Assembly (NCBI GenBank): GCA_964187785.1
Contig: OZ076409.1
Location: 34,722,001 to 34,786,000 of the forward strand
Length of the DNA: 64,000 nt
Direction: 5' to 3'
From: Amphiscolops sp. MND2022
Taxonomy: Eukaryota
Made by a program: the position numbers and the translations under genes. Below, in pieces: positions 22,636-53,200 of the stretch (within the stretch, counting starts at the first letter, position 1; every line of letters begins with the position of its first letter). The notes under the pieces are model-generated. The model made no database searches. It was not told the DNA's origin and saw nothing but the letters and a program-made list of their open reading frames with translations.

Positions 22636-25600
22636 GGCTTGCTATATAGAGATCGAATTTCCGAGGTCGTACGGAATGAGGTTGACTACTGTGGTCGAAT
22701 TACACAGGTCGAACGAGCTGAGATCGAACTTGGTAGAACACGTCGGGTCGAAATTTATCAAATTTCTCGAATCGAAACAGTTTTTGAAATTCGACACAAT
22801 TCAATCTCCAGAATTGTCACTGGTCGACCCGAGAAGGTACCCTTGTTTCCGACCTGAGGGATTCGATCCGTATCCGCACACCCAATTCTACAAACTGGAC
22901 CTAATTCACATGGGTTGTCCGGGTTCGACAACCTTAGTTTAACCGACTGTCAGGGTTCGATCGTAAGATATCGGGAATAAACAGTAAGTTGTCGGGGCTC
23001 GATGGAAATGTGAATAAAACAAAAACGGCGGGACTTGCCAATAATGACACTGATAAAGGGTATAAAAAGAAGCTGAGAGAAGGTTGACATTTGATAGATA
23101 CTTTGTTCTACCTAAATTGCTAAACGATAAACTCTGATTTATTCTCTAGAAAGATTTCCAAATTATTCTTCCCTCAACATCCTTCTAATCCTATCTTCAA
23201 AGCCAAAACCTATCTCTCTGTGCTAGGCAGAGATACTATACTGATGATAGAATTAAGGGTTCAGTCCAGCAAGCTATCACCTATTTTGAATACGGTACAA
23301 GTTTATATCAAGAATATGAGGATATATATAATTTCTGTATGAAAAACCCTATTTGCGGGAGGATGTTAATAATAGCAGTTCATGAGTCTATATATTCAGT
23401 TTATTTGAATTCAAAATGTAGTTTCTGAGTTGTTCACAATCAGTCAATACACACTTTCCTGCCTCAGTCACTTGCTCATACACAAACAATTAACTTCCTA
23501 TGAAATGAAAATACCACCCAGAGAAGGCTTTGACTGCTGTATTGCAGCAGTCTCTATTGAAAAGAGGAAAATTTTGCTGGGATCAATATACGTACATTTA
23601 GGAAACACTGAAAACATCGAAAGCGCCACAGATGTTCTGACTGAAGTGTATACGTTATGCAAAAATGAAAATATTACCGGACCAATAATCTTCGGGGATT
23701 AGAATTCGAGGCATCCACTATGGGGCGATAATTTAGAAAAGAAATATGGTAAATTACTCGCCGACTACTGAGCCGACAATGGTCTTTCTATAATAAGCCC
23801 TCACCAGGCCATTTTTGTCTCAGCAAGCAAGAACGGTAGCAGCATAATCGATTTTTGCATCACTGAACAAAAATGCTCTGATCTGGTATGCATTGCACGA
23901 GTGATCGAAGATATCGAATTCTTCTCTGGTGCTCCAGAGCAAGGTCATTGGCATGTTCTATTTGATATAGATATTCCTGTGAATTATGATAATCCTAAAC
24001 GGGGTGTGCTAAACTACAAAATGGCAAATTGGGAAGAAATAAGTATACAACTGGAAAATATTATGGTGGAAAACATGGATAGCATGATAACGGAAGCACC
24101 TACGAAAGCTCTCCTAATATTTATAGGCCTAGTGAGAGGAGTTTGTGAAAATTCGATTCCACGCAAAACACTTTGCAAATATTCCAAACCATACTGGAGC
24201 AATAAATTGACTCACTTATCGCAAAAATTGAAAGATGCACGCAAAAAATATAGACTCCAATGTAACCCAAAAACAAGAACATTGTTGAAATGGCTAAAAT
24301 CGAATTCAAAAAGGAAATGCAAAAGAATAATACCCGTTGGACGCAAAATGGCATCATGGAAATTAATGAGAAAACTCTAAAACATTTTTCGATAATATCC
24401 GCAAATTCAATGGTTCAATGGACTTAAATAACATAGGAGTACTTCGTCACAAGGGTAGGACACTGAAAAAGGATTGCCATAAAGCTGCGCTCTTTTAACG
24501 TATTTTCTTCGATGGTGCACACCTAACTGGTAAACTATTTGACGCCGCTTTTTATGAAAAAACAAAAGTAGAAGTGAAAGAGACGTTGGCTCACACCGTT
24601 GGGGATTATCACAATGAGGAGGTCAAGAATGATCTAAACATGCGTATTACAATGGATGGGATGAACTTAAACAAGCTATAAAGAAAATGAAGACAAACAA
24701 CGAGGGCGTTGATCCTTATGGCCTTCATCCTAAACTATTACAGAAATTCAAATTTAACACCATTAGCATATGTTTGCACTTGCTAAACAGTGCAATCTTC
24801 ATGGGGATTTGGCCATTTGATAAAACAATAGTCAAATTCTTGAAAAAAACTGGCAAAACTGATTTTTCTAATCCACCTTCATGGAGACCTATTTCACTTA
24901 CATCCCATTTAGGAAAAGTAGTTAAACGAGTGATAGATAGAAGACTAAGATCATCAGATATCCTCGACATGGATGAGCAACAATTTGGTTTTCAACCAGG
25001 CAAGTCAACTTTGCAATACTTATACAAAATATATCATGATATCTTAGCAATGAAAAATTTACCAATAGCAACAGTATATGATCTAGAGAAAGCTTTTGAT
25101 TCCGTAGATCAAACTTTATTGCTAAGCAACCTAATAAACAGTGGTGCAAATGGTCCAATGTTAGCTACTATAAAATCTTTTTTACCGAATCGGAAAGTCA
25201 CTATCCAAGTCAATGATTATATCGACATGTCATTTGTCCCTCTTGATGGTTTACCTCAGGGGATGTACTGTCACCACTTTTGTTTATATTTTATATGAAG
25301 GGCTTCCTCCATGATGCGGACTTAACATATAAGTATGCAGATGACAGTACTTGTCTTTCAAGCAAGGAAAACTTGAGCGCATCTTTAGAAAGGCAGAAAA
25401 CTATACATACAAATGGAGGCAGGTGCTGAATAGACAAAACTGAACATGTAAATTTCTCAAAAGAAATATCTCAGTCCGACAATAAATTTGTTGAGAGAAG
25501 TAAAATACTGGGCCTATGGTTTGAGCGAGATTTGAGTTTCAAAACACATGCTGCCCTTACCTTTGCCTCAGTGGTTAATTTCTGGAAAGAAACTAGTATA

Positions 25601-29615: not shown

Positions 29616-31990
29616 AAACATTTTTAGACATTATTCGGGCCTCTAAATCTGACTGTCCATGCTCTGGTGCCCTAAATGCAGGTTTTCTCGTGCACCGGAG
29701 GCACTGCATCTTCCGCTCATATGTATGAACTATATCCACAAAAGCCTCAACTTTGCTCTCCCTCGACGTAACGCGGTAAACATTTTTTTGACATTCGGTA
29801 AACCTGTGCGATGCAGTAAGTAATTGCTATCCTCGTGTTTTTAATGATCAGGGGACCGTTCAGTGGCACGACAGGAACGGTGCAGCTTCAGGGATGTGCA
29901 ATTTTTAATTGCAAGGATTTGAATATCGCCAATAAATATTGCGAAAAAACGTTCCCACCAATAAACAATTGCAATATTTGAAAGAAAAACAACGAAGAAA
30001 AATCAATTAATTTCAAACAACAAATCACTCGACAAAAGCATTCACGACACAGTCTCGATTGTCCACAGTTTATTATTGGCTTTGAGGAAAAGCCGCTGCT
30101 CAAGATGTTCGAGTGTCAGTCTGTGTCGCAGATTGGACTATGCCAAACCAGCTGTGCTGGAAAATCTTGGCTGTCGGCAACAAAAATTCTAAATCATGGT
30201 ACTCTGATGCAATCGTGATCCTTGCTTTCTTAAGAATAACTGAGGCAAAGTCATCATTCTCTGTTTTTGATGACCTTCAATCTTTTTAAGTCTCGCAGAG
30301 GCAATTTTTTGGTGCCAAGTCATTTTCGCAGCGCTACAGTATTCTCACTACCCGAGTATCGAAATGCTTACTTCTGACTATACGAGCATTCGAGCTATTG
30401 TTTTCTTAGTCAATACTTGAAGTTCCTTCGACCAATATCTGTCTTTTCAATATGGTGGGTGCACCTAGGTGGTCCAAATTTTAATTTTTTCCTACTAACT
30501 GGATCATTAAATTCTACAAACTGGACATCCTTCACACCTGATCCTTAGAGGTCCACCGCCGAAGATCTGAAGGGAAAAGATCTGAAAACTGAAATATGGG
30601 GCATATCCGGTGTATGCACGCTCGCCCCATTAACAGCGCCGTTGTCCTTTTCCGTCCGCGTCCTTTTGAAAAAATTTCAGACAAACTTCAATAATGCGTT
30701 TGATCATCTAAAAAATTGGTAATAATTGGAAAATTAGAAATCGATAATTTGGGGAAGGAGTTAATTAGCAATCAATAATTGTTAGCCTATTATAGCAATG
30801 ATTGTTTTTCCAATTATTGATTGAACAACCGTGTGCAGCTCGCATCACATCCTAGACCGAACCCCTCCATAAGATACTTCTTAGTTCTTTCTTGGCCCAA
30901 TGCCACTTTCTTGAGGCTGAGTACTGAGTATATCGGTGTTCACAATCCCGATCAGATTGAATTGAAAAGAGTAAAAAACATAAAGGATGGACATCGAAGA
31001 ACACTTTACTCACGAGTTTTTAGAGCGAGATTCTCATAGCGCCAAATTCATCAATTATAAATTTTAAAGCAGAAATCTATTTATTATTTCTGCGATAGCA
31101 GGAATATTATTGAAATCTCAAGATGCTACTTTTTTTCAGTACAAGTTTTCGCACGATACTGAATAATTCAGATATTTGTTCGGCAGTGACTGTAAGCGTG
31201 AGAATTAAATTTCTCAAGCTGCCGACGACCTTTCAATACTCGTGCGATGGAACGAGCGAGTGGTAATTATGCATTCGTACGCTGACGTTATTGAGATGAA
31301 GCGAATGAGTGATAATCATTCGTTCGTTGAGAGCTTCGCCTGCATTCAAATGCGAATGCGAAACTTCGTCTACGCTTAGTAGTTATACATATTTTCTTTA
31401 GTCCGAGAAGAATTAAAGCCCGTGTAAACTTGTACAGTGATTAATTGTGCGCTAAATAATGATTAAACAGGAGTGTATTGGTATTCCAGATATGATTCTA
31501 TTATAAATGAAAGATTAAAGCAGAAATAGTACTGAGCCCCGGAGGGGCTTATTTTCACAAATTTTCTTAATGCTTCTGCGTTTCAAACTGGTTGTGGTTT
31601 TATACGCTCCTTGGCGATTTGATAACTTTTCCTACAACCACCATGAAGTTTCTCTCTGTGAATGAATAATTACTAGCTTCTTTAGATGCATTAACCAACT
31701 GCTTGACTGAAAAGTATACAATTTTTTCACAATTATCAAAGTTTCTAGTTTAACTCGTGTTCAATTGGATTTTGAAAAGTATGAATAATTTAAAACTTTT
31801 CCTGAGTTGATAGTTATTGAAGACACTGAATAAGATTTCATTAGAGGCACTTTGGAGATATGCGATCATTTGTCAAGATATTTGTCCGTTCGGATTCCGT
31901 CAAAAGTCCGGCCGGATACCGGTGCACCCCTACGAATAATAATAAATACGAATTAATCAGATATTGAGAAACAAATTGATTAAAAATGTG

Positions 31991-32030
31991 TTAAGAAGCT
32001 TTTCGATCATTTGATCATCATCAGTTATCT
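31991..32030 (-). ncRNA. Minimal hammerhead ribozyme motif in the 3' pseudo-LTR
   Basis: Minus strand reads TAA-CTGATGA-T-GATCA-AA-TGATC-GAAA-AGCTT-C-TTA: catalytic boxes, stem II and a palindromic stem III (AAGCTT). Confidence 0.75.
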
Positions 32031-32150
32031 AAAAAATGTACGAATGTTTACAAAGGCTAAAATAGCAACGAATTCATAAAATAGCGAAAGAGATAGATAC
32101 TATCATACATAAATAAACACCATAGTGTGGATGGGGGGCGTCTGCGGATC

Positions 32151-34586
32151 TTAGAATGCATACTGCAGTGTGTGAGACTTGAACTCATCCTTGGTATTCA
32201 GTATCGGCTTTTTTTTAATGTAAACTGCCTCTAATGATAACAGCGTTGTGGGGTCCTGGTGGGAATCGAGAATAACGGCATCGTCTTCCGTAAGAGTCTG
32301 TTTGCAAGATTGGAAATGGAGATTCACTGGTGCATTCGTCATACCATGCTCCTTTAGTCGCGTGGAAAGATGTCGGACAGTCTGCCCGATGTAGGTACCA
32401 GCACACGCTGGACACTGAATTTGATAAATGACACGACTCTTGAAGGAAGGTGATATCTGTGTCTTAAGATGACAGATCTTGCTTCTCATCTTTATTGACA
32501 CGAAGTAGAATAGTGAACCTGGCAAAAGCTTATCTAGCTTTTGTTTAAAATCTTCACTCACTTTACCTCTATATTCAATTGGCATCATCGTGCACAAGGC
32601 TGGCTTACTAGTTTTGGTGGGTGACGTTTTTATGTTGTTTCTCCTTACTGCGTTGTTGGCTGTGATAATCTCAAGCGTTAAATTTGTTATGCGTTCAATG
32701 AAATGTTGCGGATATTGGTTATTTCTCAAAATTTGGTGGGCTTCACTAAGTGACTCACTGAAACGCGTCCATGTGCTAGTGGTCATCATAATACGGTGCA
32801 CCATACCGGCAACAAGCGATCGTTTGTAAAGGTTGGGGCTTAGGGAGTGGAAATTAAGTAACACCGCCGTATCTGTTTCTTTCCTGTACCACTGAGCTGC
32901 CAAACGACCATCGTCGTCCCGACGTATTTGCATGTCTAAAAACACAATTCCATTATTGTTATCAGGTCTTTCTAGTGTGAATTTCAGGTTTTCGTGCATT
33001 GTGTTAGCCAAATCCAATAAGTACTTTTCTCCGCCCCTCCTCAAAGTTCGGATCACATCGTCGACATACCGAAAATAGAATTTGCTAAAGGAAGCAAGTT
33101 CAGAGTCGTACCTGGATACAAATATATTGGCTAAGAGGGGTCCCACCGAGCTACCCATTGCAACTCCATCTACCTGTCGGTAGTAACCTCGGTGTGTCAG
33201 CATGATGACATCTTTTGAGACCATTTCAAGAAGTTCTTTGAAAGTTTCCCTGTTTATCCCAGGTGGTGAATGAGGTGTTGAATAGAGAAGGTCCACGGTG
33301 TAGTCAATGCTCTCTTGTAGAGGCACATTTGTGAATAGGCTAACAATATCAAGGCTTACAACTACTCCATCATCGTCAAGGATCGTAGATTGAACTGTTT
33401 GCAGTACATCATTCTTGTCGGTTCTAATGCCTGCCTCAGGTAGTTTCTTGATAATGTCGGCTAGTACTTTTGACAGCTTCTCGTATTGAGAACCGGGCAT
33501 TGAAAGTATTGGCCGTACAGGCACATCCTTCTTATGTACTTTCGCAAGGCCATATAATCTCGCCGGTTGTGAACCCACAGGGCGAACTTGTTGATAAAAA
33601 TCTTCAGAGATGAAACCGGATTTCTTCAAATCCAGTAGGCGTTTACAGAATTTCGCCTCCTCTTTTATAGGAAGCTTAGGAGACGACTCCATGGGCTTGA
33701 ACTGAGGTCCGTCCAATATCTTGTCTAACTTTCTGTTGTAACTTTCGTTCTTCATCAGACAAAAACCAGTTCCCTTATCATATGGTACAGCTAGAATACC
33801 ATTGGTTTTCAACCATTTAGCGGTTTTTTCCACGGCCCGAGGTGGCTTTTGACCGTTACAATGGTTTGAATAGCTTAGCGCAAGGGCATTAAGTCTGTTT
33901 GTTACATCGACAGGGACGTCGTGTTTTTGGCAATCAGTCAAGAGGTTGTCTAAGCGTGCCAAAAAATGCTCGTCCCTAAACTGTGTCAAGATTGGGTGTC
34001 TGGGGCCATATCGTAAACACGCTTTCACCGTCTCAGGAACCTCGATATCATCCAAAACGGTGAGAAATCCTTTGGTGTTCAATAATGGCGTGTCCTGTAA
34101 GGCACTCAAATTTTCCAATTTGCGTTTGTGTTTGACTTTAGTGGCATGAACTTTCTCCTTTGTGGATGAGGAGACATGAAACCAAACAGAGGGAATAAGT
34201 TTTTCAGCTATAGCATTCTTCAACTTTGCCCGGGCTTCATCGAGAGATTTGTCCAGAGACTGGAGATCATCCTTGCATTTCCGTATCTCTTTTTTCAACA
34301 AGTTTCTCTGAAAACCTTTAACACTTGCATCGTTAAAGCACCCATTTTTAGGCACACGAAAGTTGAGAAATTTTGGCACAATCCTGTTATCAAGGCAGCT
34401 GTTCAAAAATTCCAATCGTTGAATGTTTGTCTGCTTCTTTTCATATTTTCTTTGAAAGACATAAAATATTTTCTTCGCATCTTGTCTTTCAAGTTCCCAT
34501 AACAGGAGACGATAGGGTAAGACACATCCAGTTGTAAAATTGAGAAACAAATTGATTAAAAATGTGTTAAGAAGCTTTTCGATCAT
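32151..34586 (-). CDS. Penelope-like reverse transcriptase plus GIY-YIG endonuclease, 811 aa, uninterrupted
   Basis: Motifs PYDKGTG, LYGLAKVHK..VPVRPI, VSLDIVSLFTNVP, GVAMGSSVGP, YFRYVDD, IVFLDM, WYRKET, and VIYQIQCPAC..YIGQT.RHLSTRLKEH. Confidence 0.96.
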   Translation of the reverse strand: MIEKLLNTFLINLFLNFTTGCVLPYRLLLWELERQDAKKIFYVFQRKYEKKQTNIQRLEFLNSCLDNRIVPKFLNFRVPKNGCFNDASVKGFQRNLLKKEIRKCKDDLQSLDKSLDEARAKLKNAIAEKLIPSVWFHVSSSTKEKVHATKVKHKRKLENLSALQDTPLLNTKGFLTVLDDIEVPETVKACLRYGPRHPILTQFRDEHFLARLDNLLTDCQKHDVPVDVTNRLNALALSYSNHCNGQKPPRAVEKTAKWLKTNGILAVPYDKGTGFCLMKNESYNRKLDKILDGPQFKPMESSPKLPIKEEAKFCKRLLDLKKSGFISEDFYQQVRPVGSQPARLYGLAKVHKKDVPVRPILSMPGSQYEKLSKVLADIIKKLPEAGIRTDKNDVLQTVQSTILDDDGVVVSLDIVSLFTNVPLQESIDYTVDLLYSTPHSPPGINRETFKELLEMVSKDVIMLTHRGYYRQVDGVAMGSSVGPLLANIFVSRYDSELASFSKFYFRYVDDVIRTLRRGGEKYLLDLANTMHENLKFTLERPDNNNGIVFLDMQIRRDDDGRLAAQWYRKETDTAVLLNFHSLSPNLYKRSLVAGMVHRIMMTTSTWTRFSESLSEAHQILRNNQYPQHFIERITNLTLEIITANNAVRRNNIKTSPTKTSKPALCTMMPIEYRGKVSEDFKQKLDKLLPGSLFYFVSIKMRSKICHLKTQISPSFKSRVIYQIQCPACAGTYIGQTVRHLSTRLKEHGMTNAPVNLHFQSCKQTLTEDDAVILDSHQDPTTLLSLEAVYIKKKPILNTKDEFKSHTLQYAF

Positions 34587-34606
34587 TTGATCATCATCAG
34601 TTATCT
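34567..34606 (-). ncRNA. Minimal hammerhead ribozyme motif in the 5' pseudo-LTR
   Basis: Identical copy of 31991-32030. Confidence 0.75.
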
Positions 34607-34770
34607 AAAAAATGTACGAATGTTTACAAAGGCTAAAATAGCAACGAATTCATAAAATGGCGAAAGAGATAGATACTATCATACATAAATAAACACCATA
34701 ATTAATCAGATATTACTTCACGAATTAAACGAAGATCCGAATACGACTCAACTTGAGCTGACTGTTTTAG

Positions 34771-34927: not shown

Positions 34928-34966
<39 letters not shown>

Positions 34967-37900
34967 GGACGATTAGAGACTCTATGTTCAAGCCTTCGAA
35001 AAATTAGAGACGCTATGTCAAACTTTTTGCTTGAGTCCCAAATTTGACCAAGAAAAGCTTTCTTCTTGCAGAACTATCTCTTCTATTAATTTGGGGCAGC
35101 TATTGGCACCACTTGGGGGTCCCTTATGCTAAGCTAGAACTTTCAAATACCAAAATTTTAGTTTCTGGCACCCTCTGAATTTTCAGTTGAATTTTTCGAT
35201 TTGATGGAGACTCTATGTATTTTTTTTTCAAATCATGGAGCCTCCATGCTTGTTTTCTAAACTTTGTTCTTTCAAGGGTCCCTTTGGCATGGCCAAACAT
35301 TAGGAAAAGATAGGGCAGGTCGTGCGAAATGAATGCCGTAAGTTCTCTAGTTACTGAGATATTGTGAATTTTTGATCTAATTATCAGAAAAATTAGAGAT
35401 CTTATGTACACTATCAGAGACTCTCTGTACACATTGAAAAATGGGGAAAACGGGGAAAACTCAAATTTTGCTTTCAAACGAACGAGCCTGAGGCAATAAA
35501 TACAAGCCAAGTACAAGCCAAAATATCAAATCAATGATAACAAACGTGTTTGAGAGGAGTTTAAAAGTTTGTTTTACAAGTTCAGCTTCATACACAACTT
35601 GTGGTATTTCTTGTAGAGTTTTTCAAGGACTGCTTCCTGCTCTCTGCAAGTAATTCTGAGTGGCTTCATCAACTCCCTCATTTCGTTTTTCGTAAGTCTG
35701 TGCCGCTCCTTTGAGATGATTGCAATGACGCGCTTCATAGTGGGCCTAAGGGGGTCTTCAGCACCGCGAAAGTTCTGAAGCTGTTTTATCATCTCTGCCC
35801 AACGTTCACATTCGCTGAGGTTTCTCCCAATCTGTAACTTGTTTCTTCGACTTCTCGGGGTCCCAAGGCTCGCTACTGACATGGTAGTCCCCATTGAGGA
35901 AGCAATGGACTCAGTATCTGACATAGGGTCCTCTCTTTCAGCCGATGTTGTGTGAGTGCCCAACGTAACTGAATCGGCAGTGGTGTCATCACCTGCTGTT
36001 TCTTCTTCTTGTTCTGATTGGGAAGCTTCATCGACTTGGTTTGTGCTACTGGAAGTTGTTTTGGGGGCACTGGTACTGGGCTCATCCGTGCATCTGCTTG
36101 GGTCGACTTCTGCTTCGACAGAATCTGCTGAAAATGAAGTGTACATCGCGTCTCTGATGATCTCCCTTTGTCTCTTCAAAACAGCTCTTATTGCTGAATC
36201 CTCCAAAGGCGCAACGTAATGACGGTCCGCAGTTGCTTCGCTGTGACCCGTGTTGGACCTAAAGGCCCGCTGCAACTCTTCTGGAATCTTGCTGGCATTG
36301 TCCCGAATGTGGGTCTCCCAAACTTTTCGAATTATGTTTGGTCCAACTTTGAATTTCGGCGTTTCAAAGTGCTTGCTGAGTGCTGAATTGAAATTAGCAC
36401 TGGCGGTCGTCATTTCCCTTCCCTGTTTTGTTGGGGAACAGCAGCTTGGGTTTCCTCAACCCAGTCTCCTTTGTAAACAATTCGTGACATTTCGAGATTA
36501 ATGCATTGGTCTCCTCTGTCTTCTCAAAGAAATTCTCGTAGACGTGCCCTGTTTTGTGCTCATGGGACCGTATGATTGCTCCAACCTCCACTTTGTCATA
36601 GTCCTCGGTTGTTGTCTTTAGGACGGTGCCCAATCTGCAATTGTTGTCAATTAATACCAGAAAAATTGACAGGGACGCGAGGTCCAGGTATGTGAAATCA
36701 TTGGAGACGCCATGTACAAGTCGTTTTCTGATCGTTTCTGCCAGTTTCGCAAGTTCCTCCATGCTGGGCAGTCCTTCGAACCTGCTCTTCTGACGGGCTT
36801 TGGACTCTTTCCGGCCGGCAACCTTGTTACGCTCCTCATATGCTGAAATTTCTTCGAAAATTGTGCTGTAGCTGACCTTGTGTGACCGGGTTTTATGTCG
36901 ACGCATCCACTTTACGAACATTTTCAGTGTAGGCAGCAGCTTTTGCATCGAACTATGGGTATAATTGTTTGATTCGCGGTAAGTACGAATGATTCCTCCC
37001 GGGTCCTTGAGGTTTTTCAGTTGGTTGGTATCTTGGAACACTTTTTTTACGAACCGTCTATGAAATTGCCTGATTTCTGTTCCCCGAGTACTTACATAAT
37101 ACTCATCAAATTCTTCCAAAATTTGGGAACTTTTGAACCCTAGGGAGGTAGTTTCTGAGAGCATGGTCAGTTCTGGTGGGAATTCCGCAGGCGATTGCTT
37201 GTTTTTGACCGTTAGAATGATATGTCCAGGAAATTTTTGTAGGTGCCTCCTTTTGTTAGTAAGTCGGAGAGGACAATTAACACATTGAAACACCGTGATT
37301 CGAGCGTTCTGGGTTCGGTAAAAGGACATGAGGAATTTTCTGTGGACATCTTCTAACTCCGGATGCATTTTATCTAGGTGTTGACCGATTTTTTTGACCT
37401 TTGTTTGGCAAATCGTGCAAACTCGGAAATCGAATTTGCTGCCCTGGGTAACCTTCTTGTTAGGTTTTCTCCCCTTTTTCGGAGTCGTTCGAGGTCCATT
37501 GCTTGGTCCTGGGGTAGGCTCAGTTTGCGTTGTGTCCATTGGGGACTCATTTGACAGGAGAGACAGGTCCAAATTAAGTTCTGGCGGGAAACTTGTTTCA
37601 TTTTGTTGCATATTTTGGATTTCTTGGTCTAACATTTGCTGAGTCTGTTCTCCAAGTTGATCCATTGCATCGATTGTTGAAGCGTCCAAACCTGTTGGTA
37701 TTTGATTGGAGGAACTCATTTTGACTTTTGGAGTCCTTTGTTTCGCTTTAGTAGTGGTTAAGTCGAATTTTGAATGAGGATGACTAACAACCGACTGATT
37801 CGTACACAGCGACTCCGAAAGTGATTGTGACCAATGATTTAATAAGGTTAAAAAATGTTTCTTGAATGAAAGGACTCAGAAATGTGAATGGACAACAAAT

Positions 37901-38221
37901 AAGAGTCAAAGACGCATTTTAAGTGTGAAAATTCGCTCTCTGCTAATTACCAGAGTGGTAAAAACGCAATTATGTATGCGTGTACATAGCGTCTCCAATG
38001 TTTCGAAAATTGCGAAGTGTTTGAATTGGGGCCGAAAAATTCTGAGCGAGGTTTATGCTCGAATGGGCCTCAAATAAAGGCTCAAAAAGTGTCGAGTTCG
38101 AAAGTTTACTCTGTGAGCTAAAATATCAGAAAGACTATGGGTACTCCGTTGTTTTTGACACACAGAGACGCTATGTACGATTTTGGAAAAGTACTGGAGT
38201 ACACAGGGTCTTTAATCGTCC

Positions 38222-38286
<65 letters not shown>

Positions 38287-41200: not shown

Positions 41201-44200
41201 TTACTTCGAATATAATGTTTCAAAGTTCCCATGTTTCAAAGTTCGGATATAACGTTTTCGGATGTTCGGATATAACGTTTTCAAAGTTCCGACATAAACT
41301 TTTCAATGTTGTTTCAAATTTCCGTACTATGAGAGTGTTCAAAGTTCTCATTTTTCGTTTTTTTTTCTGAAACTTTTTTCTCCGAAGGGTCCCTCTTTTT
41401 TGCAACAGAATGAATTTTAAAAAATCGGAAAAGTCCCTTTTCAGCGCGCCAGTTCGGTCCAACTTTTGGGTTTTTTGGGTACTGCAGCAGAGAATACTTG
41501 ACGCTTTGAAGTCCCTGTGCTAATTTTGAGCCTTAGATATGGCGCCGACTTGGGCCGTTCGCGCCTTGTTGTTACGAACAGCGGTTTTCAAGAGATTGCA
41601 TGATAAATTTCGGAAATTGCCAGAAGTCAAAAATAAGCTAAGTGCTAACAAACTTATGGAATTTTTGTTGGATTTCAAAACCAAAAATAGCCCTGTAATT
41701 CTGATCAAAGTTTGAAAAAGTTTTGCTCCTGGGACTTTTGTGTCAATTGATTGCGTAAAAATTTGTTCTTATTTGATATTTTTTTGTCAGCGAAATCTAG
41801 TGTCTTTAGTCAGCGCTTTTATTAATAAAAGAGCCCGACTATTACAGTCACTCGTTTTTTTTAAAGACAGACTCGAAGCGACGAACGTTAAAATTGACGT
41901 TCAACTACTAATTACAATACTAAACTACTGGACCGGCAAACGGGGAGCGCATTTAGGATAGTGCAAAGGGTCCCCTTTCAGTTACTCCATTTTTATCGTA
42001 AGATACAAAACCGGACGAGACTATAGGGTCCCCCCTTTGAGTTTTTCGGCACTGTGCGACTTTTCGAATTTTTTTTTGTCTCCAAAGGGTCCCCCTTCAA
42101 GTTTTTTGATATTTTACAGCAAATTGAAGTTTCATAAAGCCCAAAGGGTTTCCCCTTTCAAGTTTTTCGGCACTATGAGACTGGCTCAAAATTCTTTCTT
42201 TTTCGATTTTTCGTTTTTTTCTCGAATATTTTTTTAAATGTCTCGAAAGGGTCCCCCCTTCAATTTTTAAAATATTTTGTAATATAATAGATATTAAACA
42301 ATCCCAAACACTCCCCTATTTTAGATTTTTTCGGCACTATGAGACTGTTCAAAATTGTCATTTTTCGTCTGAAATTAGGTTTTCTCAGTATATATTTACC
42401 AATAATTTTTCCAAAACTATCCGAAACTTGGACGTAATATCCTGAGTAAAGCGCTATATCCGAATTTTTGACGTTATATCCGATTTATATTCCGTTTTAC
42501 CAAGGAGTAGGCGGAGGTTCAAAAAGCGCTCCCATTTGGGCCAGCACGCTATATCCGAAGTTTGGGACGTTACATCCCGCAACAAATTGGATTTTCAAAA
42601 AAACCCAAAGGGTCCCCTCTTTTACAATTTCAAAAAGTTTGAGCTTTTTGAGCCTTAGATATGGCGCCGACTTTAGACGTTCCCGTCTTGTTAACTTTTT
42701 GGTACCCTAGTGTACAGCTTGAGTTAGTCGATGTTGTATTTTATAGCATCTCTGTTTTAATTTTTTAAATCATCATTTTAATCATTTGTACTTTTTCAAG
42801 GAAAATCTGGAGGAAAGGCGGACTCGGATCAAGTTCGTATTTTAATTTAATTTCTCCTTAAAAGGAGAACAAAAATGTCATTTGCTTATTTGTTTTCAGT
42901 CCTCTAGCAGTGGTAGATCCAGTTCAGTGAAAGCCTCTTATCCCAGATCGAAAGATGTTCTCAAATTGGGCCCTAGCTATATTAGAAGAGGAGCTATTTC
43001 TCCAAAACCACCTAAACGAAAACGAGGTGAGTTTTGAAAATACTTTTACCAATGATTTCACTCAACAATTGGAGCTATCCGACTGCCATTCTTCGCTGTG
43101 TATATTCCATTAGGTTTAGATCTCTTCAAGAATTCGGTGTCGTTCATACTTTATCAGAAATTTTCTTGTACCTGGAAGTGTGTTGACAAATTTTTGCGTG
43201 ATTACATTTTTGATTGAAGTGTAATGTTAAAGTGTATGTGAGGTGTAATGAATGTTCATTAGATCCATCAAGTCATCCTCCATTCGAATGTGATTTGCCC
43301 CCCGACAATCCTCCTCCGCCACCCACCGTTGCTCAGCCACAGACAGTTGTGGGCAACCAGTCACTAATGGTGCAGCTGACGAACCCTGCCTCGGCCACTG
43401 TGACCGCCAGAAACATAGTACTACCAGATCAGGCTGCTGCTGCCCAAAACGTGATATCTGCCATTATCATGTCCAATCTCGCACAATACGAACGCGCGAT
43501 TGATGCAGTATTGCACAAAGCCGCCACTGGCCAAGATCTCACTTGCTATCTAGCCGAAGTGGACCCCACTGCTGATCTAGACAGCATCCCTCCAGTCACT
43601 CCCAAGAGCGTTGATCTGAACACTTCTGACTCCACAAACGCCACTGTGGCCGAGCAACCAGAATCAACCACTTCTGAGCACTCTAACGCAGATTTACAAT
43701 CCAGTCAGATGGCCTTGCAGGCGCAGCAAATGGGTGCGACACAACAAACGCTTGCAAACCCTGGACTTGTTGTGAGGACTGGTCCTCAGGTTGGACCACC
43801 GCCTCAGACGCCAACGGCAGCTGTAATGGGCCCTCACACCCCTACGATGGGAATGCACGGCAGACCCACGATGTGGGGATACGATTCAAGTGCCCCTTCA
43901 CCGCATGGTGCCTACATCATGGCTTCCCCGGGAGACCCTTCAATGGGGTTTGCTCCTCACGACCCGGTAATAAAAATTAATTTGAAGATGTTGATGATTC
44001 TATTTCAACCGATTCCGTTAGTATCATCAGCACATGATGTGAGCTTGCTTTTCATTTTTAAACTGACTTAGTGAATGTTTTTTTTTTGGTTTTTAATCCG
44101 TGTGTGCTTACTGGTTCTTCATTTTTCAGCTCTGGTTTGCGAGCCCACACATAGTGGTATGTAGTAATACTATCGGCCGGTCAAAACATGCTCTAAGTCA

Positions 44201-47200
44201 TTTCTCATCTGCACTCTTTCTGTATCACTTCCAACTATAGCAGCCCCGACCCCAGCCCCACTGGTCTTCATAAACTTTTCTTTCCAAGGGCTTCCAAACG
44301 TGAATTCACGTTTGTCATTAAATTCTGCAAGATTGATTCAAGTGAAAATTCCACCGAAATTTCATAAATTCACATTTTCATTGACCGATTGGACTTTTTG
44401 AACTAGTCGAAGATTTTGAATTTTCTGGTGTTGATCACTTTACTTTGTTTTCCCTTGGTATTTTCTCCAGTCTTTTCATAAAAAGATCCGTTAAGTAGCA
44501 TCCGCTGAAATCGTGATCAAATTTGTGAAATGAATTCAGAACCCGCCGCTACAAAAACTGTTTTTGGAGTCATTTTTAGAATTGGATTTCATTTTGTTGC
44601 CTGGTCGCTGCGACCGTCCGGCGGTTGCTGCTTCTGGACTGCTTTGTAGATCACTTGTTACACAAACAACCGGACACCATCACAAAATGAACATCTGACT
44701 TTGTAACTGTAGTTGCTATAAATATCTTTTGTTGTTTTTCACTACACCTGCTCAACAAAGTGCCGCCCGCCGCAACTTGCAGTTTGATACATCAGAAAAC
44801 TGTCACTTTCTCTGAAAAATGAGCCTGTCATTTTTGGTCTTCAATTAGTTGCTCCTAACTTCTTTGGTCAAGTCACTTCGAAACATTTTAATCTTTGCTG
44901 TTCAATTATACCTTTTTGAAACGTTTGAATGTGAGAAGCTTACGGGGATAGAAATTACTACACGGCCTTTATTGTTTTTTACTTTTTCAATGAAATCACC
45001 GGTCTTTTCAATTGGTATATTGCAGTGCAATTTGAATCACACTTGTTGTTTGAGGCAATTAATCAACGATCAATTTTTCTCAGACAGCCTTCTAGGCTTT
45101 TTGTTTCGTAAGTTGACTCGTTCATTGAGCAATGCGTAATTAGAAATTAGTATTGTACATTCAATTTGGGTTAGTTGCGGTTGAAGCTCGGTGGGGTTTT
45201 CTTTATCACAAAAGGTAAGATATAAATCAGACGCCACCACGGGTGGAGCATCGTTTAGTGTATTATCTATCGTAGAACATGAACCCGACCACTACAGCCA
45301 GTTAGGTTATGCAAGACCGATTGACTAATAGTGTTGTTTTAGATGAGTGGTCGTCCACACCCCAGTCCAGTCAAGATCCAGTCTCCGATGATGCCTCACA
45401 AAATGGCACCTGCTCAAAGCCCCTCTTATGCGCCTAGTAAGTTACTAACCAACCCGTTCTCTCGTCTTCTTATTACGTCGGCGTGAGTCCGAAAATTATC
45501 CAAACAGGCTTTTCATCCAAATGCTTTTTTTCAATGCTTTGAATGCTTCAGAGTGGAAAACAGTCAAAGTTATCACTAACTTACTCACTTTGATTGTCTT
45601 TCACTTTGAAAGTGAATTCCAGTCAAAATGTGTACCATGTTAAAGTGTAAAACAATCAATTTCCGTCTTCGTGTGTAAAGTGGAAACCAGTCAAAGTACG
45701 TAATTGCAGAGAGTGTAAAGTAGTCATTTACTGTATTTTGATCACTACGCGTAACGCCAAATCACACAGTGTAACGAGCAAAACACGTAACGCGTATTTA
45801 GAATAATAACGCGTTTTCATTGGCTGTTAATCGAACTAGCAAGATCTTGCTAGTTCGTTGCGGCATATGTATCGTAATGTTCCGACAAAGTACGCGATCT
45901 TAACAATGTTATCTTAGCTAGGCGAGATGGTTTATGTTGGCAATCGATTGTGTGTTGGCTTATGTAGTTAATTTTTCGCTTAGAGCTTTCGAAACAGTGA
46001 AATCAAAAGTTGATTTTTGCCTTTGTAGCATTGTCTTCTAATCAAGTCTAGAGGATTATTGAAGCAATCTAAATTGCAGTATAATTTCGAAACATATTTC
46101 TAGCTTTTTTTTCAATCATCAGAAAGCTGAAAATCCTGCAGTGTGCCAAATGAGTGATGAGCACATTGATCGATTCTGTAGTTATTGTAAGTTGTTAATG
46201 TTGAAGCATATTTCAGTACTTAAAAGTACATTTTGGTTCGAATAATGCCGCACAGTGCTGAAATTACCCAAAGGTGTGATCCTTTAGGCTCGATATACGC
46301 GTTTGATGAACTGGAAAAAGAAGAACCGAAGCAGGGAAGATCTAGTGAACGGAAAAAAATTGTCGCTTGAAAAGTCGTTCAAAGCCAGAAAAGATCCTTT
46401 CTCAGGATTTGAGTTAGAGAAGTTAGAGACTTGAATTAAAGGTACAAAGTTTGTATCAAACACTTTTTGTTGAAAACGGTGGTTCTCGAGATATTGCATT
46501 TTAAATTTCGAAAAAAAATCAAAGTCAATTATTTTGTTGGCTAATTACACTTGCGATAAGCAAGTGTTATGGGAACGTGCGAATTTTTTTTTCCGGGTGA
46601 CAACTCTCTCATTTCAGACCGCAAGTCGCATAATTCAGACTTTTTTGGTCTAGTGGTAAGATGCTTGCTTTTCAACCCAGAGGGCCTGGGTTCGAACCCG
46701 TGCCTATGCACTATTTTTTTTACAAGCTGTGCTGCTTCCAATACTTGCAATTGTTTTGAAACACTTGCTTTTCAACCCAGAGGGTCTGGGTTCGAACCCG
46801 TGCCTATGCACTAATTTTTTTACAAGCTGTGCTTCTTCCAATACTTGCAATTGTTTTGAAACACATTTTTTAAATGATCAAGTTGAGTTCATGCATTCAT
46901 GTAACATGTAATGATGTACCTAGCAAGGTTTTATTTTTGAGTGTATGAGGTTTACCTGAAAAACGTTCCGGCAAATCTTGGTACAAATCAGCCATAATAA
47001 AAAGGTTTGTTAGGCTGAAGATTGCAGCAGTTGATGTCGACGACGAAATACAAAATTTCAAGAGTTGAGACATGGCGTACCAAGACTGTCGAGTCCGAGA
47101 TTTTAGCAAGTTGCATGTAGAAGGGGTGCGAAACTAGCGAGTCCTTCCCGGGCAGGTCGTTCCGGGCCACCCAAGGTTAAACACATGTAACAAAATATGA

Positions 47201-50200
47201 AACTGAGTTCACCGAATTAAAAATTTTTTTAGTATAATTATGGTTCATTTTGTTTTTCGTATTTTCACAATGTGTTTTGGCGGACGTTTTATGTTACATC
47301 AGTTTATGGATGTTTTCCTATTGCGGAATCATTTGATCCCTAAGATGTCATTTTTTTTGGTCCTCAACTGAGCAGAGGTTGCTGGACTTTTTTTTCGGTA
47401 ATTTAGCTTTTCATATAAAGACTGAGGAAACTTTTCAGGTTGTTTCAACATTTTTTTCGAACTCAGTTGATCCATTTTTTAATGAAACATTATTCTACCC
47501 AAAAATGCCAAATTTAAGTTGCATGTAGAAGGGGTGCGAAACTAGCGAGTCTTTCCCGGGCACGTCGTTCCGGGCCACCCAAGGTTAAACACATGTAACA
47601 AAATATGAAACTGAGTTCATCGAATTAAATTTTTTTTTAGTATAAATATGGTTCACTTGTTTTTCGTATTTTCACAATGTGTTTTGGCGGACATTTTATG
47701 TTACATCAGTTTATGGATGTTTTCCTATTGGGAAATGATTTGATCCCTAAGATGTCATTTTTTGGTCCTCAACTGAGCACATGTTGCTCGCCTTTTTTCG
47801 GTAATTCAGCTTTTCATATTAAGACTGAGGAAACTTTTCAGGTTGTTTCAACATTTTTTTCGAACTCAGTTGATCCATTTTTTAATGAAACATTATTCTA
47901 CCCAAAAATGCCAAATTTAAGTTGCATGTAGAAGGGGTGCGAAACTAGCGAGTCTTTCCCGGGCACGTCGTTCCGGGCCACCCAAGGTTAAACACATGTA
48001 ACAAAATATGAAACTGAGTTCATCGAATTAAAAATTTTTTTAGTATAAATATGGTTCACTTGTTTTTCGTATTTTCACAATGTGTTTTGGCGGACATTTT
48101 ATGTTACATCAGTTTATGGATGTTTTCCTATTGGGAAATGATTTGATCCCTAAGATGTCATTTTTTGGTCCTCAACTGGGCACATGTTGCTCGCCTTTTT
48201 TCGGTAATTCAGCTTTTCATATTAAGACTGAGGAAACTTTTCAGGTTGTTTCAACATTTTTTTCGAACTCAGTTAATCCATTTTTTAATGAAACATCATT
48301 CTATCCAAAAATGCCAAATTTGAAGCGATCGTCCCAATTTTTAACGGACGCCATTCTTGCTTGAATTCACTCAATACGATCTCGAACAGTATCTCTCGAT
48401 GTTGCTCAGAAGAAAACTTTGTTAAACCTAAAATCTGAGACCGCAAACCGGGTTCGACCTTGCCCTGATCCAGTTTTTCTGGATTGTCGAACCTGTGTAT
48501 GGGAAAACCCTGTCCTAGTGGTTAACCTAGTGGTTTTTGAACTGCTCTACAGCCAATTGTTACTTTCCCTGAGTTGTTTGGTTATACTGAATCCTCTTGC
48601 TCAATATACACTTTTTTCGTTACAGGTTACGCTGGAGATGGACCGACTTAGACAAGAGGCTGTTTTTCCAACTTTACAATCTCTGTCCAAGTGTTGCAAA
48701 ATCCGCCTATTGTTCCAAAATGTACAGAGTCTTCGAAAAATTTTTTGCATTGCTACCAAGCAACCATTTTTCGACACTGCAACTTTCAACATTTTCTGTG
48801 AAACTTGGTTGATGTCATCAGACACACTTCCATCCACATTCAATGATATGTTCATCACACGACTTGATTTTCCTACGTGTGATTCGAATCAGAGACACAG
48901 AGGAGGATTTGTAATTTTCTCGAAAGTTCGTCTCGACATAACATCCGAAGTCACGAACAATGTGCAAATAGCATGTTTCGAATTCATGAATCTTCTTTTC
49001 ATTTTTGTTCATCGACGACCGTCAGAAACACCAATATCATTGTTCAAAGAATGTCTTTCTCAGAAGTTTCGCCAACAGAAGAAACCAACCATTGTTATGG
49101 GTGATTTCAATGTAAACTTGAAATGCGACAACAGCTCCTTTTTACGCTTTATGGGGTCAGAAGGTTTCCACTGTCTAATTGATGATACCACCACGAAAGA
49201 GCACACACTTCTTGATCACGTATACTGCAATGAATCGAATCTTCTTCATAAGTTGAACTGTTTTGTGGCCTACAATGTTTATAGTTTCCATGAGCCCATT
49301 GTTTTAGAAGTTTGTGATTGATTTTGTTTCAGTAGTTTAGCTTGTTTATCTTATCTTGAATTATATCCAGCTGAGATGAGAAATTTCGAAACAAGAAAAA
49401 TGATAGCGTATAATGTTTTTTCTCGCTTTTCGATTTTCGGAAATCCAGGCACCATATGTGCAAAGATTTTCGCGCTTAGTCAAAAGCCTACTTCACGTTG
49501 CGAGCCATGATTGCTAACATTTGAGAGAAAGCTTTAGGCCATCTTATCGGGCCGAATGAGTTGCCGGAGTTGTTTTTAAAGAGATTCCACAGTTTGAAGT
49601 TGAAGGCCGGAGGCTCGAGAAGTGAACTCAAGGTTAAAACTCAATAATTTCTATTTTCAATTCCAAATTACAACCCAATGATTTTCTCTTTAGAATTAGT
49701 ACCCACTTTTGTAGTATGATTTATTAGTGCTAATGAATATGATTTATTTTCAGAGGTGTAAAATGCATTTTCGTTGGTAAAATCTCAAATGTTGCCTGGC
49801 AAATAGCGATGTGACGTGTTGTGCTTTAATAAAAGCGATGTGTTTTGCGCTGTGCTGTTGCCTTCGTCAAGAATGCAGGCTTTTTTTCAGAGGAAATCGG
49901 CCACTCAAGACATTTTTTGGCTGGTTCCCCCAACAAGCATTTTCATTTCAGGACCTAATTTGTGTCTTTTTGTGCTGTTTTTAAATTGATCAGTAAGTAA
50001 AAAATTGTCTTGCCTTTTAAGCCATGGTCCTTCGTGTGATATTGCTTATGCGGTTTTTTCAAAATTTGCAACTTCGCAAGTGTTTGCGAAGCACGGCTTC
50101 GCCTCTGTGTAACTTTTGTGAGAACTCAAAACAAAAATGCCCCTGTATTTCTGATTGGAATTTGAAATGGATTTGCGCCAATGACTTTTGTGTCTATCGA

Positions 50201-53200
50201 TTATGTAGAAATTGCGGTTTGAGGTTTGAAATCCAGTGTCTTTAGCATTTTGATACCCTACTGTATTTAGCTGTTTCAGTATTTTCTCCCCGTTTGGGTA
50301 AACTTGATTAGTGACGCTGTGTATTCAATGAACAAAACGAAGACTTGATCATTTTAAAGTATGTTCTATAATACCCTGAGAACAAAGTGTATTTCAGAAG
50401 CGCCTTTGTGTAGCTTGGCACAATCGTTGATATGAAAATTCGATTGTTGGATTCAATCATATGAATATTTAGTGATGTATGGGGGACATTCTCCCTACGG
50501 ACGCATGGCTCCCTCGCAACCACCCGCCCACTCTCCATACGGGGCACCTCCCCCACACGCCACCACTATGGGTCAGTTTTCGCCGAACTTTGGAATGACG
50601 TCACCCATTGGAGGTAGCACCGTCATCCAAGCCGGAATGAATCCTTACATGGTGGTAAGTATCAATGCTGTAAAATAACACATTCACTGTCAAATTGTTG
50701 TTACTTTTAGTCCTTGTTATAAGAGCGATGGCCCTTAGCAACATAATTCATTATAGTGTCTGATAAAAATCACGACATGGTCGTAAGTGACGCCATTATA
50801 TACATTTGAATGATTGAACGTTTAAATTTCCAATACTCTGAATTCAACAGTAATAACCAGCGGTATTTGTTAACTCGATGGGTTTCACTTATTTTCACTT
50901 TCACAATATTGACTTTGTTGCGTCGGACTTGGTTTTTGAAATTTTTCTCAAACATGTCCTCTGTTGCAGCCTCCTCAAATGAACAAGCCTCCTCCCCCTC
51001 CACAGGCGCAGATGATGCAGCAACACTCGCCCATTGCCATTGCCGCCCCTCAGCACCCCCAGACAACGGCTGTGGTCAACTCAGGACTCACCACCAAGGA
51101 CTTTCTACCCTCTCTTCAACATAGTCAAGTGAGTACCTATTCAAGCTATGAATCCCCCACCCCCACCCACCCTTCTCTTGAATACTGTAAATCTTTTGAT
51201 GTAATGCGCACCTTTCTCATTCATCACAGTTTCACTCTTTGTGACGCGATCGGTGATGGTCTTATTGTTGGGTGTAGAATTGGAATCGCTTTGAATTTTA
51301 ATTTTTCCTTTTGTAGGCATGGAAATGTCTTGAAGCATTTTTGTTTATGCTCTTTTGATCACACTCGGCGATGCTTTTCAATTTCCGTTCATATTTCAAC
51401 TCTAAAGAATTCGATTCTGTTGAAATATTCTCTCGAGACGCACAAAGAACTTCAGTCTTTATTTCAAACCAACTTGAGATATGCGTGGCATGAGGAGCAG
51501 AGTGAATGAATCGGGCCCCTCAAGACTTTTGATACTGATTTTATTGAAGAACCGTTTGCGCTGAATTATAATGCAGAAATCTGCGTAGCAACTGGAAAAT
51601 AAATTGAATTTACCCAATTTGAAATCGATTGCCTTAAGCTGTGAATAATTGCCATGTCAAAATGCCTATTTTTGTATTCATATGAGTGATCGAAATACTT
51701 GGTGTTGATTTTGCTGAAGTGATGTTTTGCGCTATTTTAGCGAAAGCGTAAAAAGTCAAAACGTCATGGACAGGTAGTTAACTGAAGCTAAAAACTCATT
51801 CTATCTAGAAATTCTGTTGGCATTCACTGGAAGGTGCTCTTATTTCGCTATCGCTTTTCGAAAACTTGAAAAATATTTTAGCCCCAAATGGTAGTGAACG
51901 CAGATGTGTCTGGAGGCGCTGTAGGCCTGGCAGCAACACATAATGCAGCCGGGCCTCCCAAGGAGACAATCATCGGTGTCACCCAGAGACCAGGTGCGGG
52001 TGGTAACAGTGTGGTAGTGGTTGCGGAAAGAGCTCCTCCTCCCCATATGGCCACTTCTGCTAACCCCAATCAGCAGCAGTTTCAACAAACAGGGTCAAAA
52101 ATGGTTGCTACCACTCAATCTAGCCAAGCTGCTAAAGGTTGGTGCTATGGTTACAAGATTGTTTTCGATTTCTAACAATGCAGGATTTTAATGGTCTGTT
52201 TCTTTCCTTTCTGTGCAATATTGTACTATATAAGTCACGGTGTAACAATGCAATAATTGATGAGTGAAATATGTTTAATTTGAACTGCAGCAACATTCGG
52301 AGAAATAGACTCATCGTCAATGCATTCAAATCTCGCCCATGCCAGAAAACACCAAGAGCAAATGCTTAACTCAGGTGGTAGCTCCTCTCAGGTAACTGCT
52401 CTTGGTGTTAAAAAATACATCCATACTTCTGGAGCTGTTGCCACCGCCACTAACTCCATGAGCCCCACCGCTGCCGCTACTACTACCAAAGAAAGTAACG
52501 CAAGGCTTGGTTCCTCCCTTGTGACGAAAAAGCCAGAACCAATTGTTATTACCACCACTAAGGATAACTCAAAAGTAGTAACGCCAACTCAACCTAAAAC
52601 AAGTGTGCAAAGCAGCTCCAACCCAAACTCGTTCGCCCAAAATCACAACACTGACACTATCACCAGTCCAAGCTTCAGTTACATGCAGGAGTTTTTTCCT
52701 GAGGTCACGAAAAGCATGCTGAAAATCCCATCTTCCAGACCTCAAAGTTCGACTCCAAACGCTAGTACAGTGTCAGACGCATCATCCGCAGTAAAAAGTG
52801 CCGCTGCTCCCGCTACTTGTGTGACTAATACATGCATAAATGAGAACCAAATTTTTCTCAGTCGAGAGCGTGTCGAACCCCCCGATAGGCGCTTTTCTGC
52901 TGGAGCAAGTTCATCGTCAGCGTCTGCTTCATACACTGTAGCTTCAGTTTCGTCCAACAAAGGTTTAAACAGCAATCATTCAGTTGAAGTACATGTATAG
53001 CTGAGCCACTCCAATGCTAGATTAAATCACATTTGCTCGTCTGAGCAGAACCAACTCTGGGCATGAACAGTGAAGCAAGCATGGCTCTGCATGATTAGCT
53101 TTAATACGTTTCACTTTACGGTAGCAAGTGCAAATTTTCAATGGAGTTCAATCAATTGGAACAATGATTATAATCGCACGTACTTTTAGTTCAAAGTTCA

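Follow-up and report, generated by a model that had tools for sequence, protein, structure and literature searches.

A segment of 3,255 bp in the genome of Amphiscolops sp. MND2022 raises the question of how a DNA element with a single gene comes to lie inside a TGA microsatellite. The segment belongs to contig OZ076409.1 (here C1) of a 1.07-Gb assembly and was found in a stretch of 64,000 nucleotides (C1:34722001-34786000) that is referred to as the window; positions without a contig name are those of the window. The element, here named family A (34967-38221), is very probably an autonomous-type DNA transposon whose single tyrosine recombinase integrates it site-specifically into (TGA)n. That the targeting is the work of the recombinase that the element itself encodes can be stated with high confidence, and the recently active radiation of microsatellite-homing recombinase transposons in which it stands is real.

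Family A and its TGA flanks

The boundaries and TGA flanks proposed in an earlier, sequence-only reading of the window held when the sequence was read again, and a recount of the outermost 21 bases gave the claimed 18 out of 21 matches between the left end and the reverse complement of the right end. The flanking runs of 13 and 21.7 TGA units share the same phase, and removal of the element leaves the continuous run that had been predicted, more precisely 34 units plus TG. The open reading frame (ORF) list and Pfam agree with the earlier statement that no reverse transcriptase (RT), DDE transposase or viral gene lies within the element. A 12-base motif, GAGACNCTATGT, occurs eight times in the window with at most one mismatch (0.56 occurrences expected), every one of them inside the element (table 1).

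A search of the genome at the DNA level with family A, in which 40 out of 96 candidates were scored, returned 67 matches, 32 of them end to end, and the best 30 copies (93-100% identical) were fetched for the comparison of flanks and ORFs. All 30 start with GGACGATTA and finish in or near TAATCGTCC, and each of them is flanked at either end by TGA repeats that have the same orientation (2-81 units on the left, 4-97 on the right; the right flank of one copy begins with TGG). The element is not a chance arrangement, since there are 32 full-length matches in the genome and the 30 fetched copies are all flanked by TGA at both ends in one orientation. Searches with the ends alone located the left end 32 times and the right end 33 times, almost always as part of a full-length copy; 29 of the left-end matches follow at least three TGA units, two follow two units and one is a chance match. 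The last (C4:16058657) is a 17-mer with neither a repeat nor an element behind it and was discarded. The fetched copies and the end searches thus bear out the expectation that the ends and the (TGA)n flanks recur in other copies. The short non-autonomous copies that had also been expected were not found for family A among the 32 left-end and 33 right-end matches, and as these counts match that of the full-length copies no abundant short form of this family was found, whereas one such form occurs in a sister family (see below).

The recombinase gene and its product

The gene lies on the minus strand and is divided in the window copy into frames of 493 and 293 codons by a one-base insertion near 36426 in a T run, which is private to this copy (1 out of 30). 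The 714-amino-acid frame from the ATG is preserved in 7 out of 30 family A copies, and an intron is required by none; since 29 out of 30 copies do not have the extra base, neither an intron nor a programmed frameshift accounts for the break. The window element is a broken copy: the single tyrosine recombinase gene of the earlier reading does encode a recombinase, but its frame is interrupted here by the private insertion.

The protein contains the R-K-(H)xxR-H/W-Y catalytic set of the tyrosine recombinase superfamily, with R362 at 36636-36634, K389 at 36555-36553, R464 at 36329-36327, H492 at 36245-36243 and Y501 at 36218-36216; the coordinates first assigned to the five residues all proved correct on recomputation. 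Among 36 sequences with 16-46% identity, R362 is invariant, K389, R464 and H492 are conserved in at least 90% and Y501 in at least 70%. In an AlphaFold model of an intact family A copy (mean pLDDT 80), residues 194-525 best match the XerA, XerD, XerH, Cre, Tn1549, lambda and phage integrases (Foldseek E 2.4e-4), and structure alignments (VIA) were obtained with 4a8e (Z 11.3, rmsd 10.4 over 258 residues) and with XerH 5jjv (Z 10.3, rmsd 4.7 over 273 residues). The model supports a tyrosine-recombinase fold with core-binding and catalytic domains, as had been anticipated from the sequence. Residues 101-119 are a C2H2-like motif with weak Ros/MucR matches, a second Cys/His motif follows, and the only match in a sequence search of the PDB is the C2H2 domain of Ros (2jsp, E 0.0014). 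Residues 634-714 form a separate helical C-terminal domain that reaches a pLDDT of 60 when modeled alone. Among the 36 relatives, Pfam gave a Phage_integrase match in two and weak matches to ROS/MUCR C2H2 in five and to Phage_int_SAM_1 in three, and none (0 out of 36) matched the DUF3504, GCR1_C, NDC10 or DUF3435 models (E 0.05 for DUF3504 and GCR1_C).

Table 1. Coordinates in the window of the family A element, its flanking repeats and its internal features
Feature	Position	Strand	Basis
Left target microsatellite, (TGA)13	34928..34966	+	Sequence
Whole element, family A, 3,255 bp	34967..38221	.	32 full-length genome matches; 30 fetched with the same ends
Left 21-bp terminal site: repeat-like positions 1-8, then GAGACNCTATGT motif	34967..34987	+	In register with sister-family ends
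Subterminal motif copy, candidate arm-type binding site	35007..35018	+	Motif search; similar place in family B
Subterminal motif copy	35207..35218	+	Motif search
Subterminal motif copy; second, weaker copy about 21 bases upstream	35417..35428	+	Motif search
3' part of recombinase gene: R464, H492, Y501, acidic linker, C-terminal helical domain about 35819-35577; out of frame here	35574..36425	-	
Motif copy within ORF (IRDAMY codons)	36143..36154	-	Motif search
Private one-base insertion breaking the frame, 1/30 copies	36426..36426	.	
5' part of recombinase gene: ATG 37719, core-binding domain from about 37140, R362, K389	36427..37719	-	
Motif copy within ORF; 6/6 shared codons identical in family B (44% background)	36704..36715	+	
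Second Cys/His motif	37284-37222	-	Within 5' part of gene
C2H2-like motif	37419-37363	-	Within 5' part of gene
Subterminal motif copy upstream of ORF	37984..37995	-	Motif search
Subterminal motif copy	38165..38176	+	Motif search
Right 21-bp terminal site, inverted relative to the left (18/21)	38201..38221	-	End comparison
Right target microsatellite, (TGA)21 plus TG	38222..38286	+	Sequence

The surroundings of the element contain other repeats. A young Penelope-like retroelement with terminal direct repeats of about 161 bp, a repeat with many copies, lies at 31963-34700 and carries an open frame of 817 amino acids with RT and GIY-YIG (32151-34604, minus strand); it was considered as an empty-site marker, but it stops near position 34700 and does not provide such a site. 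Two near-identical broken retroelement copies, endonuclease/RT-like by reading, are located 22.6 kb apart (1168-2694 and 23772-25298). Three tandem copies of a 403-bp unit (96%) at 47108-48321 precede a 318-amino-acid frame (48365-49321), which we take to resemble the exonuclease-endonuclease-phosphatase family, and several long low-complexity plus-strand frames at 43214-56977 are probably exons of a host gene.

Sister families, arrays and the state of the target

Family A has at least seven sister families, with 24-43% protein identity where intact, and each targets (TGA)n or (TAA)n. Families B and C (both 3.32 kb, 43% and 26% protein identity to A) have intact ORFs and lie in (TGA)n, as do families D and H/I, encountered mostly as broken copies, whereas families E (748 amino acids), F (639) and G (750) lie in (TAA)n and show 24-27% identity to A. 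The family E element (3,329 bp with an intact ORF of 748 amino acids; loci L080-L085, L088, L099, L172-L191) has TAA on both sides in 18 out of 18 copies examined, and a median identity of 100% among eight full copies on four contigs points to very recent movement. When all fetched loci are taken together, 170 out of 176 distinct ends adjoin the expected repeat strand, six have degenerate flanks and none adjoins the opposite strand; the flanks of A, C and E, which were found by sequence, are unbiased. One family D copy has a doubled right end, with two terminal sites a few repeat units apart (L047:6032-6075).

Fifteen ends of seven families fit a single register counted from the last repeat unit, with G at position 2 (13 out of 15), A-T at 6-7 (12 and 14 out of 15), A at 11 (14 out of 15) and the 12-base motif up to position 21; one end is one base short, and in B and E the first triplet is repeat-like and is given to the element by the register of the ends. 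Internal motif copies are found at similar places in families A and B. At the two copies within the ORF, A and B have identical codons in 6 out of 6 positions at one (44% background) and 3 out of 4 at the other, which is modest evidence that these copies may be constrained at the DNA level. In a protein tree, made as a quick version only, the TGA families fall into two groups (A+B and C+H/I+J). The TAA families are grouped with A+B at a weak support value (82), so that the target may have switched more than once.

In five sampled regions, 16 out of 26 family B units are of a short form of 2.4 kb, and all 16 lack one common stretch that corresponds to the core-binding and catalytic domains. The spread of copies without these domains implies mobilization in trans through the ends. 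A unit of about 2.3 kb between TAA runs (L083:6118-8391 and L175), which starts with the shared motif and contains no frame of at least 250 amino acids, is probably another non-autonomous member.

The elements also occur in arrays. The largest (C8:53,053,549-53,123,019, 69.5 kb) consists of 23 elements, namely six A, seven long B, nine short B and one C, all head to tail and separated by 24 TGA runs, and smaller arrays are found on C1, C2, C3, C4, C5, C9, C13 and C1289. Among the 25 youngest A copies, divergence within the same locus (0.0163) is close to that between other copies (0.0178, permutation p=0.25), and only 3 out of 30 family A copies have their nearest relative within their own locus. 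Array neighbors are thus no closer to each other than to distant copies, which indicates that the arrays grew mainly by repeated independent insertion. An (ATT)10 run lies inside one TGA spacer between two elements (L095:7587-7694).

An array of five elements at C1:21.83 Mb begins at the 3' end of a LINE-like repeat, a label read from its C-terminal motif. This 3' end has 40 matches in the genome, 20 of which were fetched; in the 180 bases read, all 20 sister copies end in (GAT)3-29 (median 5.5 units) and contain no element, so the target exists without the element. The array-bearing copy reads CAAC-TGATGA where the 20 empty sisters read CAAC-AGATGA (L043:2598-2600), a difference that may stem from mutation, slippage or conversion in the course of integration. 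One E copy within a short repeat has 2+3 units where 2 were present before insertion (the empty state is inferred from neighboring repeat units), and with one triplet assigned to the element the gain amounts to 6 bases. The shortest spacer between a right end and a left end is 6 bases, at two junctions.

A profile search returned 180 relatives among 1.84 billion representatives; 20 were looked up and had no informative name (two were called 'hypothetical protein'). The group is present in other organisms as well, since nothing in this genome matches one of these relatives (P0013) at more than 30%. The contigs that carry several of the relatives measure 2.5-4 kb, close to the length of a single element, which is only suggestive. 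In the P0007/P0008 clusters, a 21-kb contig carries five members and an 11.9-kb contig two, which suggests that related families form arrays there too. Pattern searches for relatives matched 140 stretches of viral contigs and, with P0021, 597 of metagenome contigs, and none of these was confirmed. Look-alikes by features, which serve as leads only, were unnamed eukaryotic clusters (0.96-0.97) and Phage_integrase clusters (0.95), with DUF3435 clusters ranked lower. In the genome itself, a recombinase of the same type is fused to a SET domain (1,055 amino acids, 23% identity to A; L192:1574-4738 and L193, at C4:35.996 Mb and C1:21.199 Mb) in an element of at least 6.3 kb that is 99% identical on the two contigs; other frames in the genome span 823-1,333 amino acids, and P0021, P0093, P0104 and P0112 also look SET-fused.

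Mechanism, alternatives and known systems

Transposition through a circle with a short fixed overlap is the route that we consider rather probable. The enzyme would bind both 21-bp ends and the scattered motif copies and excise a circle whose junction, right end-(TGA)k-left end, would form a core site like those of Cre and Xer, with k=2 and hence a 6-bp overlap as the simplest case. In family A, right end-TGATGA-left end would be such a site with perfect arms of 9 bp; in tyrosine recombinase sites, inverted repeats of 11-13 bp are described as enclosing a center of 6-8 bp (PMC3212892). The pattern AT-N-AT-N-AT, which positions 1-7 of the element ends resemble, is read on either strand of (TGA)n and likewise of (TAA)n, and the repeat could act as a pseudo-palindromic partner site for a recombinase dimer, with the asymmetric third base setting the orientation through overlap homology. 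The scattered motif copies may serve as arm-like sites for the zinc-finger or the C-terminal domain. Each insertion would leave repeat on both sides, the target would survive and families with the same target could stack head to tail, while copy number would grow by repair or replication of the donor sites. Precedents are the clean excision with copy gain of CryptonF (PMC9977147) and the circles of Starships (bioRxiv 10.64898/2026.09.21.753150).

Several observations weigh against this reading of the locus. In the protein, Asn replaces the usual His of H-x-x-R, and no Pfam recombinase family is named for family A. The TGA flanks of families B, D, H and I are partly ascertained, since these families came to light as neighbors of A or C. 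Two older family A copies have degenerate flanks with the repeat missing on one side and one family C copy has TGATGA on the left and TAACGG on the right, which does not fit a strict 6-bp duplication. An empty allele was looked for in the assembly, where the flanks adjoining the repeat are single-copy, and none was shown. The runs beside elements are long (median 23.5 units, compared with 5.5 in the empty tails), with 607 repeat units for the 23 elements of the C8 array and 115 units in the six runs of the array at C1:21.83 Mb. With a plain 6-bp overlap, runs of this length would require later slippage; either slippage lengthened them afterwards or units were added on insertion.

The second option would mean that the crossover lies farther out in the repeat, or that the repeat is lengthened at integration, so that some 10-25 units would be carried or added by each element, which would renew its own target. 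This is rather unlikely. In its favor, the 23-element array contains about 26 units per element, the 115 units around five elements contrast with 3-29 units in the 20 empty sister tails, and TAA flank variants are common to three pairs of copies. Two close A copies on different contigs have a right flank of 21 units whose unit 16 is TAA, and in two pairs of C copies the position of a TAA is shared. The shared variants are few, however, were noticed post hoc and might each be due to chance by a rough birthday estimate, spacers of only 2 units occur, long targets are sampled more often, and long microsatellites expand by slippage anyway. Furthermore, in the tyrosine recombinases that have been solved the two cuts lie 6-8 bases from each other, next to the binding sites (PMC3212892).

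Explanations in which the recombinase plays a lesser part are each very improbable. Passive spread by ectopic recombination, gene conversion or tandem duplication between TGA runs, with the recombinase incidental, would be favored by the homologous repeats that bracket every copy, and an adjacent pair on C1289 are mutual closest relatives; the mixed order of families in the arrays, relatedness that does not cluster by locus, copies with almost no repeat, and separate families that each have their own ends and conserved catalytic residues speak against it. A DIRS-like retroelement might borrow an RT in trans and use the recombinase only to integrate a circular cDNA; the combination of a tyrosine recombinase with inverted ends is also found in DIRS elements, and the element contains no intron that would exclude an RNA step. 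Against such a DIRS-like retroelement, no internal copy of either outer 12 bases is present at up to two mismatches, and hence no internal complementary region, there are no split direct repeats, and no family examined encodes an RT. Identity with DIRS, Ngaro or VIPER was rejected on the absence of an RT, an internal complementary region and split direct repeats. In their short terminal inverted repeats and subterminal motif copies, the ends resemble the substrate of a DDE transposase, which might act in trans while the recombinase only resolves intermediates; Tec elements have been proposed to work in this way, a Mariner transposase moves MarCry, and such composites are described (PMC3212892). 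Yet none of the 176 ends is in the opposite orientation, no family examined has a DDE gene, the type of target tracks the recombinase family, and the end sequences differ between families while keeping their register with the repeat.

Among described systems, CryptonV elements are tyrosine-recombinase DNA transposons, some of which insert specifically in microsatellites (PMC8869645, citing Kapitonov and Jurka 2012, Repbase Reports 12:2034), and the link to microsatellites made in the sequence-only reading is in print. The elements described here share with CryptonV the recombinase as the sole mobility gene (one ORF, no RT or DDE) and the microsatellite-specific insertion (all 30 A and all 18 E copies), and differ in that CryptonV is reported from cnidarians. 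On balance membership in CryptonV is probable, as judged against a description of one sentence. The available parts of three other sources only name CryptonV in classification tables (PMC3537659, PMC4455052, PMC5753468), and the full-text literature outside subscription journals and Repbase contained no account of 21-bp ends in a common register, of arrays of mixed families or of families paired by TGA and TAA targets. The concept of microsatellite targeting is known, while the anatomy of the elements and the building of arrays appear to be undescribed in the literature searched.

The classic Cryptons A, F, I and S are described as having no terminal inverted repeats and 4-6-bp direct repeats or none (PMC3212892, PMC13465315, PMC13565253). 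They share with family A a recombinase as the sole mobility gene, the proposed circular intermediate and non-autonomous derivatives, and family A differs in its microsatellite target and in its 21-bp inverted ends (18 out of 21), with which an assignment to these groups by their lack of inverted ends fails. Starships are likewise eukaryotic recombinase transposons, whose circle and integration were shown experimentally (bioRxiv 10.64898/2026.09.21.753150); they are giant fungal cargo elements with DUF3435, whereas the elements here are 3.3 kb without cargo. Identity with Starships was rejected on these grounds, with no DUF3435 match in 36 relatives. The telomere-targeting recombinases of endogenous nimaviruses combine C2H2 and SAM-like domains with insertion into simple repeats, and nimaviral concatemers that span the repeat were observed in long reads (PMC10871703). 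C2H2-like and SAM-like domains precede the catalytic domain here too, a likeness of domain order based on weak matches, but nimaviral genomes of about 280-400 kb (two genera) at (TAACC)n differ from a 3.3-kb element with one gene (PMC10871703). The searches for relatives returned nothing under a nimaviral name. The Xer, Cre, lambda and Tn1549 integrases have the same fold of core-binding and catalytic domains and use inverted core sites plus arm-like extra sites; identity is 10-18%, and the microsatellite target, the extra Cys/His motifs and the C-terminal helical domain are features of the elements here.

A bolder proposal, which we regard as improbable, is that the elements form a separate integrase lineage beyond the described Crypton groups, held in common with the larger SET-domain elements, that would read AT-N-AT-N-AT with the third base retuned between families and would add repeat units at each integration. 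If true, it would account for self-renewal of the target, heterogeneous arrays of 70 kb and microsatellite growth driven by an enzyme.

According to a 2026 review, the mechanism of Crypton transposition has not been demonstrated experimentally (PMC13565253). This genome supplies material for such a test: elements of 3.3 kb with one gene, exact ends and a defined target, 7 out of 30 family A copies with intact ORFs, and the near-identical family E (median 100%, eight copies) as the best candidate for experiments. The non-autonomous form marks the requirements in cis, and the TGA and TAA specificities allow a comparison. Bacterial integrative elements stack at a regenerated target, and the arrays are a eukaryotic instance of such stacking. 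If the recombinase were to work in a foreign cell, it would be a compact integrase whose target repeats are abundant and for the most part inert.

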